Below, one piece after another: positions 57,126-63,671 of a DNA stretch of 64,000 nucleotides (the stretch's first letter is position 1; every line of letters begins with the position of its first letter). The position numbers and the translations under genes are program-made. The stretch is from Nitrospirota bacterium (lineage in GTDB: Bacteria > Nitrospirota > UBA9217), in the NCBI GenBank assembly GCA_963754875.1, contig CAVWHO010000017.1:128001-192000 (forward strand), read 5' to 3'. Under the pieces are notes generated by a model. It was not told the origin of the DNA and made no database searches. It was given only the letters and a program-made list of their open reading frames with translations.

Positions 57126-57506
57126 ATGTTAACGAGAATCAGTGTTGCCGCGTTCGCATTCATGATGTGCATCTCGCCCGCTGCTGCCGAACAACGACTC
57201 GGGGTCGCCGTGTATCCCGGAGCGAAATACGATTTCATCAGGACGAAGCTGCTCGCGGAGAACCCGTCAGTTCAAGGGGCGGCATACCGGACCGGCGACG
57301 ATCTCGCAAAGGTCACAGCCTTTTACCGGGAGCATGGGCTCCTGTTCCTGAAGATCGGCAGTACGTCGAAAGAGGAAGTGCGGTTCAAGAAAGTAGATAT
57401 TAACGTGGATGTGGTCGTTCAGCAGCCGTGGAGGGACCCGCAAACGGGCGCCACAATGAAGGACACCCTTATTCTGATTTTAAAAGAAAAGGAGCAGGGG
57501 AAGTAG
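57126..57506 (+). CDS. Exported hypothetical protein
   Basis: Signal peptide, GVAVYPGA motif. Confidence 0.7.
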   Translation: MLTRISVAAFAFMMCISPAAAEQRLGVAVYPGAKYDFIRTKLLAENPSVQGAAYRTGDDLAKVTAFYREHGLLFLKIGSTSKEEVRFKKVDINVDVVVQQPWRDPQTGATMKDTLILILKEKEQGK

Positions 57507-57508
57507 TG

Positions 57509-57697
57509 ATGCCGAAACGGCCTGTTGTAGATCAAGACCTGTGCATAGGCTGCGGACACTGCGCGGAAGTGTGCCCCAAGGTCTTCGATCTCATCGACGA
57601 CAAGTCGAACGTGACCGGGCCGCACCAGTGCGGCACCTGCAACTGCCAGGAGGCGATCGATACCTGCCCGGTGCAGGCGATCTCATGGGAAGAGTAG
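57509..57697 (+). CDS. Single-cluster ferredoxin
   Basis: CIGCGHCAEVCP...CPVQAI. Confidence 0.9.
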   Translation: MPKRPVVDQDLCIGCGHCAEVCPKVFDLIDDKSNVTGPHQCGTCNCQEAIDTCPVQAISWEE

Positions 57698-62685: not shown

Positions 62686-62846
62686 TCCTGCATGACGCGC
62701 CACTCCTCAGAGAACATGCCCGTACTGTTTACCCGTTCAAAAACGCTGGCGTTCTCTATCACGATGGTGAAGTCGCATAACCTCAAGCGGCAATGAAAAG
62801 AGGGGGATGTTCAAAGCAGACCAGGACCGTATCTGAGAGGTGACCC

Positions 62847-63671
62847 ATGCAGGAGGAACAGAAGCACATACCCGGATCGGTCTGAGCGCCGTCGAGCGGC
62901 ACCGGGGGGTGTTGCCAGGCGGGTCAGCAGCCGGGGCTGCAACCGGAAGAGATCAGGAGCGCGGTGCGGACCAAATATTCCGAGGTGGCCCAGTCGGCCT
63001 CCGGGAAATTCTCCTACCCCACGGGCCGGGAGGGCGCATGTGCGCTCGGCTATGATCCCGCACTCATCGACGCCGCCCTTCCCAGCCTGCTCGAATCCTT
63101 CTGCGGTGTGGGCAATCCCTTTTCCCTGTTCCCGATCCAGCCCGGATCGGTCATCCTCGATGTCGGATGCGGCGCGGGTTTCGATCTCTCCGTCGCGGCG
63201 CGGCTGACCGGTCCCGAAGGCATGGTGCACGGGGTCGATCTGACCGAGGCCATGGCGGCACGGGCGCGTGAGAACCTTCACAAGGCAGGCATTGCGAATG
63301 TCCGCGTGCAGCAGGTGGGGTCGGAGAGCCTGCCGTTTAAAGACAACACCTTTGATGCGGTCATTTCGAACGGCGTGATCAATCTCTCGCCTGACAAAGA
63401 GACCCTGTTCTGCGAGATCAACCGGGTGCTGAAACCGGGGGGCTGGTTCGGCTTCGCCGATGTGGTGCTGGAGAAGGAACTGCCCCAGGGCATGGCAGGC
63501 AGTGCCGAAGCGTGGTCGCAATGAATCGGCGGCGCGGTCCCGGTCGGGGACCATCTCCTGGCGCTCCGGCGGGCGGGCTTTGCAGACATCCTGTTCACCG
63601 GCATGACGGGTTTCCGAACTTCTCCCTACACCGAAGGCGCGCTCTTCAGAGCCAGGAAGAAAGCGGCGTGA
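62847..63671 (+). CDS. ArsM/AS3MT-like SAM methyltransferase, predicted selenoprotein with two Sec (TGA 62883 and 63522), 274 aa
   Basis: GAGAGG RBS; SFCGVGNP, LDVGCGAG, SNGVINL, WSQ-U-IGGA; SECIS-like hairpins after both TGA codons. Confidence 0.82.

Follow-up and report, generated by a model that had tools for sequence, protein, structure and literature searches.

The window, by which we mean the whole stretch of 64,000 nucleotides analysed here, contains on its forward strand a single frame of 274 codons (62847-63671) when translated with TGA read as selenocysteine (Sec) at codons 13 and 226. A first-pass annotation of the same DNA had proposed one frame running from an ATG at 62847, behind a ribosome-binding site, through TGA codons at 62883 and 63522, with a 186-residue open reading frame as its middle portion. 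These coordinates were all borne out, and the 186-residue frame, which opens with GTG and spans 62964-63524, corresponds to residues 40-225 of the full protein. The two hairpins that had been described, one of 20 nt starting 10 nt after the first TGA and one of 17 nt starting 11 nt after the second, were likewise located at those places. The features of the locus are listed below in order of position.

62837..62843, + strand: Shine-Dalgarno-like GAGGTGA, 3 nt ahead of ATG 62847; SD-like words occur in most homologues too
62847..63671, + strand: full coding sequence of an ArsM-like class I SAM methyltransferase, 274 aa, with predicted U13 and U226
62847..62930, + strand: N-terminal arm, residues 1-28, predicted to be disordered, with U13 and Cys22/Cys23
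62883..62885, + strand: first in-frame TGA, predicted Sec13; TGA in 62 of the 65 distinct homologues listed
62896..62915, + strand: SECIS-like hairpin 1, 8 bp with a GGGG loop, 20 nt, 10 nt after TGA 62883
63102..63104, + strand: Cys86 (FCGVGNP), two residues before the CmArsM Cys72 column in the HMMER alignment
63156..63179, + strand: SAM-binding motif I LDVGCGAG, residues 104-111 (Pfam PF13847, PF08241)
63372..63374, + strand: Gly176, giving SNG for SNC, in the CmArsM Cys174 column
63522..63524, + strand: second in-frame TGA, predicted Sec226, in the CmArsM Cys224 column; TGA in 65 of the 65 close homologues listed
63536..63552, + strand: SECIS-like hairpin 2, 6 bp with a GGUCG loop, 17 nt, 11 nt after TGA 63522
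63669..63671, + strand: true stop TGA, which varies among homologues and has no SECIS-like hairpin

The gene is solitary, divergent from a LuxR-type response regulator and followed downstream by a peptide-transporter-like frame. TGA 62841 was rejected as a Sec site because it falls within the SD sequence and no hairpin follows it. The terminal TGA 63669 was likewise rejected as a third Sec site on the grounds that a hairpin is absent and that the stop codon is variable, being TGA, TAA and TAG in 25, 24 and 16, respectively, of the 65 distinct close homologues listed. Elsewhere in the window, a small ferredoxin-like frame with two cysteine clusters (57506-57697, +) appears ordinary.

Homologues were collected at several phylogenetic levels. 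Of 64 genomes searched in the host's order, 24 had a double-Sec gene at E ≤ 1e-77, and extension to the 401 genomes of the phylum added seven matches outside the double-Sec methyltransferase family, six of which were fetched. A scan of genome contigs contributed the best 80 of 591 confirmed stretches. The resulting pool (loci L006-L029, L035-L040 and L041-L093, with duplicates removed) comprises 65 distinct homologues among the matches listed. Three loci (L040, L083 and L093), all with TGA at the second site, were dropped by the motif parser, and the fragment L034 was excluded. Two copies belong to cultured Desulfocapsaceae, Desulfopila aestuarii and Desulfosediminicola flagellatus, and one of the 62 arm-bearing homologues, L029, appears degraded.

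In the protein collection the window gene is represented by the fragment of residues 40-225, and the truncation that had been anticipated for standard annotation extends to its relatives, with 103 of the 120 best database homologues stopping at the second TGA. Sixteen further entries have Trp at both TGA sites, most likely through translation with a TGA=Trp code, and in 14 of these the first read-through falls at residue 14. One entry out of the 120 is arm-less, with Ser at the second site, and Cys at the second TGA site was found in none of the 120 best database proteins.

Both in-frame TGA codons are conserved. At the first site the codon is TGA in 62 of the 62 arm-bearing loci listed and never TAA or TAG, the three exceptions in the pool being the arm-less L037 and L039 and L081, which is truncated by a contig end. 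The segments beyond each TGA are conserved as well, in agreement with the first-pass reading: among the matches listed, the 45 residues past the second TGA are 61% identical to the window, against 65% for the core, and the ten residues after the first TGA are 45% identical. The protein ends 48 residues beyond U226. The first-pass annotation had also proposed to check whether Cys or TGA aligns at both positions in homologues. At site 226, Cys occupies the column in CmArsM and in 25 of the 27 distant loci listed (L094-L120) and TGA in the other two (L103 and L109). At site 13, no Cys homologue was found in the 62 listed loci or in the 120 best database proteins.

The hairpins were assessed individually and across homologues. 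Hairpin 1 is more stable than nearly all of its shuffles (z = -2.87, with 2 of 200 shuffles and 1 of 100 synonymous-codon shuffles equally stable). Hairpin 2, whose spacing (11 nt/17 nt) had been likened to the geometry of the E. coli fdhF SECIS, is by itself no more stable than shuffled sequences (z = -0.93, 38 of 200; 9 of 100 synonymous shuffles). Defining a hit as a hairpin with a loop starting with G, 16-23 nt past the TGA and with a folding energy of -5 kcal/mol or better, a hairpin was detected after the first TGA in 58 of 62 and after the second in 62 of 65 of the homologues listed, compared with 14% of 9,813 control codons and none of 25 terminal TGAs. The real hairpin was more stable than the mean of its synonymous shuffles in 57 of 62 cases at site 1 and in 65 of 65 at site 2, and reached p ≤ 0.05 in 24 and 49 of these listed homologues, respectively. 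Pairing of hairpin 1 is preserved in 81.6% of alignment cells, versus 30-67% in slid registers. Covariation support for it is modest to weak, with two-sided changes at two of its eight pairs and an RNAalifold consensus of only three pairs in a shifted register.

The host genome (90% complete) also encodes the machinery that decoding of UGA as Sec calls for. The first-pass annotation had pointed to selABCD as a check on its proposal, and selA, selB and selD, all above their cut-offs, are present together with a tRNA-Sec; the host selD carries a TGA of its own. Within the order, selA was found in 21 of the 24 gene-bearing genomes, the three lacking it being 68-86% complete, and it was present in 4 of 4 others. 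Its occurrence in 55 of the 64 genomes of the order makes it uninformative as a contrast. Judged as a bacterial selenoprotein, the window protein thus has selA, selB, selC and selD in its genome, at both sites an in-frame TGA that is conserved along with the coding sequence past it, and, in our own hairpin scan, a SECIS-like hairpin 3' of each UGA. Since, in addition, the segment separating the first UGA from the catalytic domain contains no conserved start, we consider it very probable from the comparative evidence that both UGAs are decoded as Sec, as the first-pass annotation had suggested.

Pfam and NCBIfam both identify the protein as a class I SAM methyltransferase, and the ArsM-like fold initially suggested for it was recovered by structure and profile searches. 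An AlphaFold model with U entered as Cys has a core of mean pLDDT 88.8, and CmArsM, CrArsM and human AS3MT occupied the top Foldseek ranks (E 2e-18 and TM 0.67-0.69 by query length; the CmArsM structures are 4FR0 and 6CX6). A PDB profile search at E ≤ 1e-20 retrieved only arsenic methyltransferases (five sequences). The SAM motif is shared with ArsM/AS3MT, and U226 falls in the CmArsM Cys224 column, which agrees with the proposal of an active-site Sec at the position of a conserved arsenic-binding Cys. According to PMC6138428, Cys174 and Cys224 form the arsenic site of CmArsM, and the Cys44/Cys72 pair re-reduces the product and is reset by thioredoxin. In contrast to this arrangement, the window protein has no Cys counterpart of Cys44, Val88 in the Cys72 column, with the invariant Cys86 two residues earlier, and Gly in place of Cys174. 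The Cys three residues ahead of GNP and the SNGVINL-type SNG instead of SNC, the latter already noted in the first-pass annotation, are each present in 65 of the 65 close homologues listed. The ArsM call described in PMC5552862 demands at least three of cysteines 44, 72, 174 and 224, and in the window protein only column 224 is filled, by Sec; likewise, its score against the ArsM/AS3MT model NF008823 is 192.8 bits, versus a cut-off of 263. Canonical ArsM, for its part, lacks the N-terminal Sec and belongs to a separate clade. The window enzyme may work like ArsM, though it stands outside ArsM membership. Haloarchaea, Halomonas and Myxococcota were also seen to have a broad clade of ArsM-like methyltransferases of the SNG type, in which the Cys224-column cysteine is the only one of the four present (L094-L120 among the matches listed).

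The N-terminal arm differs in character from this core. Residues 1-28 have pLDDT values below 50 and are not docked on the core in the AlphaFold model, and between 72 and 101 codons separate site 1 from the core among the homologues listed. The start codon lies exactly 13 codons before the first TGA in 46 of the 62 genes listed; the leader that it opens is 12% identical in sequence to that of the window, and the linker after the UGA varies in length by 30 codons. A fixed 13-codon leader of free sequence could reflect a translation constraint. After the UGA, the SECIS stem determines residues +4 to +10, with codons +9 and +10 (Cys22-Cys23 in the window) forming the 3' strand of hairpin 1. The window TGT-TGC preserves stem pairing through a G-U wobble, and some homologues have Arg or Ser in place of Cys in these codons with pairing preserved. 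The position of the +9 Cys inside the stem means that RNA structure accounts for part of its conservation. The first-pass notion of a metal-binding U...CC tail did not survive this comparison, as CC occurs in only 2 of the 62 homologues listed and both of its codons belong to the stem.

What is retained is one Cys near the arm Sec, found at shifting positions in 60 of the 62 homologues listed. Among the 62 arms placed on the tree (L141 included, L029 excluded), 40 have Cys at +9, and a further nearby Cys is present in just two of these. The other 22 lack the +9 Cys, and 20 of them have another Cys within -13 to +15 (at -9 to -1, +8 or +13/14), against a linker background of 3 Cys per 969 residues. 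The tree implies eight changes of the +9 state, with just two independent pairs on strong branches (sign test p = 1). With so few independent events, compensation by a relocated Cys is suggestive and not significant. Pro follows at +2 after the arm Sec in 52 of the 62 N-arms listed, with all four Pro codons in use.

Selenoproteins related to this enzyme have been catalogued. Table 1 of PMC13188914 lists a single-Sec arsenite methyltransferase (UxxG, WP_011987699.1, Fomenko 2007) as experimentally verified, and credits NF047649, NF041536, NF041537 and MduS, with two to three Sec, to Haft & Tolstoy 2025. The best NCBIfam match of the window protein is NF047649 (methyltransferase/UXPK-star), at 283.6 bits versus a cut-off of 460; members above this cut-off were found in 4 of the 401 genomes, and four were fetched for comparison. 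Their core is shared with the window protein (49-54% identity), including FCGVGNP, SNG for SNC and the Sec at W-x-x-U-x-x-G, so that the Sec at UxxG in an SNG-type core is found here too. Both kinds of protein have two Sec, and both present one of them in a U-x-P context, with Cys nearby, on a terminal extension. The extensions lie, however, at opposite ends: in four of four NF047649 members the second Sec is C-terminal, in C-x5-U-x-P-K-stop, and none of the four has an N-terminal arm, whereas the window protein carries this Sec at residue 13-14 and lacks the C-terminal U-x-P-K-stop tail. The UXPK-star tail model NF047647 gave no match to the N-arm at E ≤ 10, and the 56 N-terminal residues matched no NCBIfam family at E ≤ 1. 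A PSSM of the N-arms scored -1.5 to 2.6 on the four UXPK tails, versus a null 99th percentile of -0.1. With no NF047647 match beside this PSSM signal, neither common descent of the arm and the UXPK-star domain nor a simple permutation is established. The ArsM/AhpD (NF041537) and ArsM/DUF2284 (NF041536) models recognise the same single-Sec core at 282 and 260 bits, below their cut-offs, over profile positions 11-251. These families have a C-terminal domain with further Sec and, like the NF047649 members, tails that contain U at their end, whereas the window protein lacks an AhpD or DUF2284 domain, and their profiles do not cover its N-terminal arm. In seven ArsM/AhpD- or ArsM/DUF2284-like loci (L126-L128 and L131-L134), extra in-frame TGAs, at most two per tail, were seen in Pro/Gly-rich C-terminal tails, and some of them may be Sec sites beyond the catalogued count.

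The relationships among these families were examined with a quick maximum-likelihood tree of the core only (96 rows, excluding L029, L081, L129 and the duplicates L140 and L144). A branch with SH-aLRT 91 sets off the 62 N-arm proteins, which lie among single-Sec relatives that have no arm and apart from the C-arm families (SH-aLRT 97) and canonical ArsM (100), and their branch spans both Nitrospirota and Desulfobulbia. Because N-arm and C-arm proteins form separate branches, a Sec arm was most likely gained independently at each terminus, as far as core sequences can indicate. Sec-containing ArsM is thus already catalogued, as are two-Sec relatives whose Sec tail is C-terminal, and the N-terminal Sec arm is absent from the catalogues checked. 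Our literature searches brought up no account of an enzyme of this type with an N-terminal Sec; the text or supplements of Haft & Tolstoy 2025 may mention the arm.

Genomic context is heterogeneous. No neighbourhood is conserved, with no neighbour family present in more than 7 of the 67 loci listed once gene-overlapping ORFs are excluded, and ars motifs were found in none of 52 flanks; the host's own ars genes lie on contigs other than that of the window. Across the host's order the double-Sec gene is present in 24 of 64 genomes, versus 7 of 64 for canonical arsM. The two co-occur in 2 of the 24 gene-bearing genomes, approximately the chance expectation, with no sign of mutual exclusion. One genome with a double-Sec gene also has a canonical arsM above the NF008823 cut-off with one in-frame TGA (G021:C11:607843-608631). 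Two genomes have an in-frame fusion in which a TsoC-like selenoprotein of thioredoxin fold precedes the arm (G060, L026:683-1756, -; G050, L028:1495-2583, -; 43.6 and 44.5 bits versus a cut-off of 45), yielding a predicted three-Sec protein that retains the arm UGA, here 96-97 codons past the start. The G050 fusion locus also contains acr3, selD (with a TGA), a regulator of the ArsR type and another, incomplete copy of the methyltransferase (L034). Genes for TsoA-like selenoproteins lie upstream of the methyltransferase at L053, L054 and L069, with merT/merP-like genes at L054 and an ArsM-family gene downstream at L053. Informative loci are thus a minority; they are consistent with a role in metalloid and selenium biology and with a partner of the thioredoxin type. 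The TsoA-related selenoprotein (L053:2166-2651, L054, L069; NF045695, 102.6 bits, cut-off 170) has its TGA in a different motif, H-U-I-x-x-C, and possibly constitutes a further subfamily. In the host genome itself, a small TsoC-like selenoprotein frame, unfused and interrupted by a TGA in frame, was seen near position 230894 of contig C20, which also bears selA, selB and tRNA-Sec. The host is, separately, a predicted mercury methylator, since hgcA is present above its curated cut-off (G000:C16:598766-599746) with an hgcB-like motif just downstream.

The reading that we favour, by a modest degree, is that of a two-Sec SAM methyltransferase engaged in the methylation of a soft metalloid, in which a mobile N-terminal Sec/Cys arm stands in for the lost ArsM cysteines. 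With moderate confidence, the metalloid would be held by Sec226, by the nearby Cys86 and by Sec13, which movement of the arm would bring into place. Once SAM has donated its methyl group, Sec13 and the Cys paired with it would reduce the pentavalent intermediate again and end up as a selenenylsulfide, to be reset by a thioredoxin-like protein, in a cycle that would parallel the Cys44-Cys72 pair of CmArsM. Several observations count against this model: only one of the four CmArsM cysteine columns is occupied, and the binding site described in PMC6138428 is formed by Cys174 and Cys224. To these are added the lack of any Cys homologue at site 13 among the loci and database proteins compared, the position of the +9 Cys in the stem, the few independent events behind Cys compensation, the arm left undocked by AlphaFold, the missing NF047647 match, the lack of a conserved neighbourhood or of ars motifs in the flanks, the placement of the host's ars genes on other contigs and the chance-level co-occurrence with canonical arsM. 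Arsenic, most plausibly as arsenite or methylarsenite, is our guess for the substrate, at even chances, and antimony, selenium, tellurium or a thiol would be a distinctly weaker guess.

The role assigned to the arm presupposes that the first UGA is translated and that residue 13 is chemically active. If the first TGA were instead the true stop of a short leader peptide, the enzyme would begin downstream with a single Sec, and the poor conservation of the residues ahead of the TGA would be accounted for. A start codon of some kind does occur between the TGA and the core in 33 of the 62 genes listed (ATG in 14), but 29 of the 62, the window among them, have none before the first conserved helix. 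Starts preceded by an SD sequence are present there in 9 of the 62 listed, at scattered positions, and absent from the window; a start 8-18 codons ahead of the TGA is found in 59 of the 62 listed. The codon, moreover, is invariably TGA in the listed genes, while the real stop varies freely, and the SECIS-positioned hairpin follows it in 58 of 62, so that we regard a true stop as highly improbable. Another possibility is that the N-terminal UGA is read as Sec and serves as a selenium gate, residue 13 being chemically idle: when selenium is scarce, translation would stop after about 13 codons and not produce a 225-residue dead enzyme. Leader length is indeed fixed (-13 in 46 of the 62 listed; residue 14 in 14 of 16 database proteins) while its sequence is 12% identical, no Cys replacement was found at the first site, residues +4 to +10 are set by the stem, and arm-less single-Sec relatives exist (L037, L039, L142, L143 and L145). 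Such a gate would not explain, however, why arms without the +9 Cys regain a Cys partner elsewhere (20 of the 22 listed), nor why the C...U-x-P arm of related enzymes is C-terminal, three residues before the stop, where there is nothing to gate, and the TsoC fusions keep the UGA 96-97 codons from the start. We judge an idle residue 13 improbable.

A different objection accepts both Sec and concerns the substrate, which could be selenium, tellurium, antimony or a small thiol or selenol, possibly in selenium handling at tso-type loci. The empty Cys174 and Cys44 columns and the NF008823 score (193 versus 263) are compatible with such a role, as are the TsoA-like (three loci), TsoR-like, TsoC-like, selD or merT/merP-like neighbours of some loci and the lack of mutual exclusion with canonical arsM. 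Against it, every one of the nearest solved structures is an arsenic methyltransferase, two loci have acr3 or an ArsM-family gene close by, and most loci have no selenium-handling neighbours. This alternative appears rather unlikely, and metalloid methylation with an active Sec/Cys arm remains our preferred reading.

In its fullest form, which we put forward tentatively, this reading describes an uncatalogued family of at least 62 double-Sec methyltransferases in Nitrospirota and Desulfobulbia, in which the ArsM cycle would have been rebuilt with a mobile N-terminal Sec/Cys arm gained apart from the C-terminal arms of the sister families. For databases, the analysis corrects a systematic annotation error, in which most of the best homologues are entered as fragments that stop at the active-site UGA. 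It also adds an architecture to a recent group of multi-Sec ArsM-like enzymes, and the existence of the same core with a Sec arm at either end, or with none, constitutes a natural experiment on the role of the second Sec. Should the enzymes methylate arsenic, surveys that require three of the four cysteines would miss them in 24 of the 64 genomes of the order, compared with the 7 of 64 that have canonical arsM, both because the canonical cysteines are absent and because the proteins are annotated as fragments. If the interpretation is correct, methylation of arsenic or another metalloid would proceed in anoxic soils and sediments by a route that has stayed hidden.
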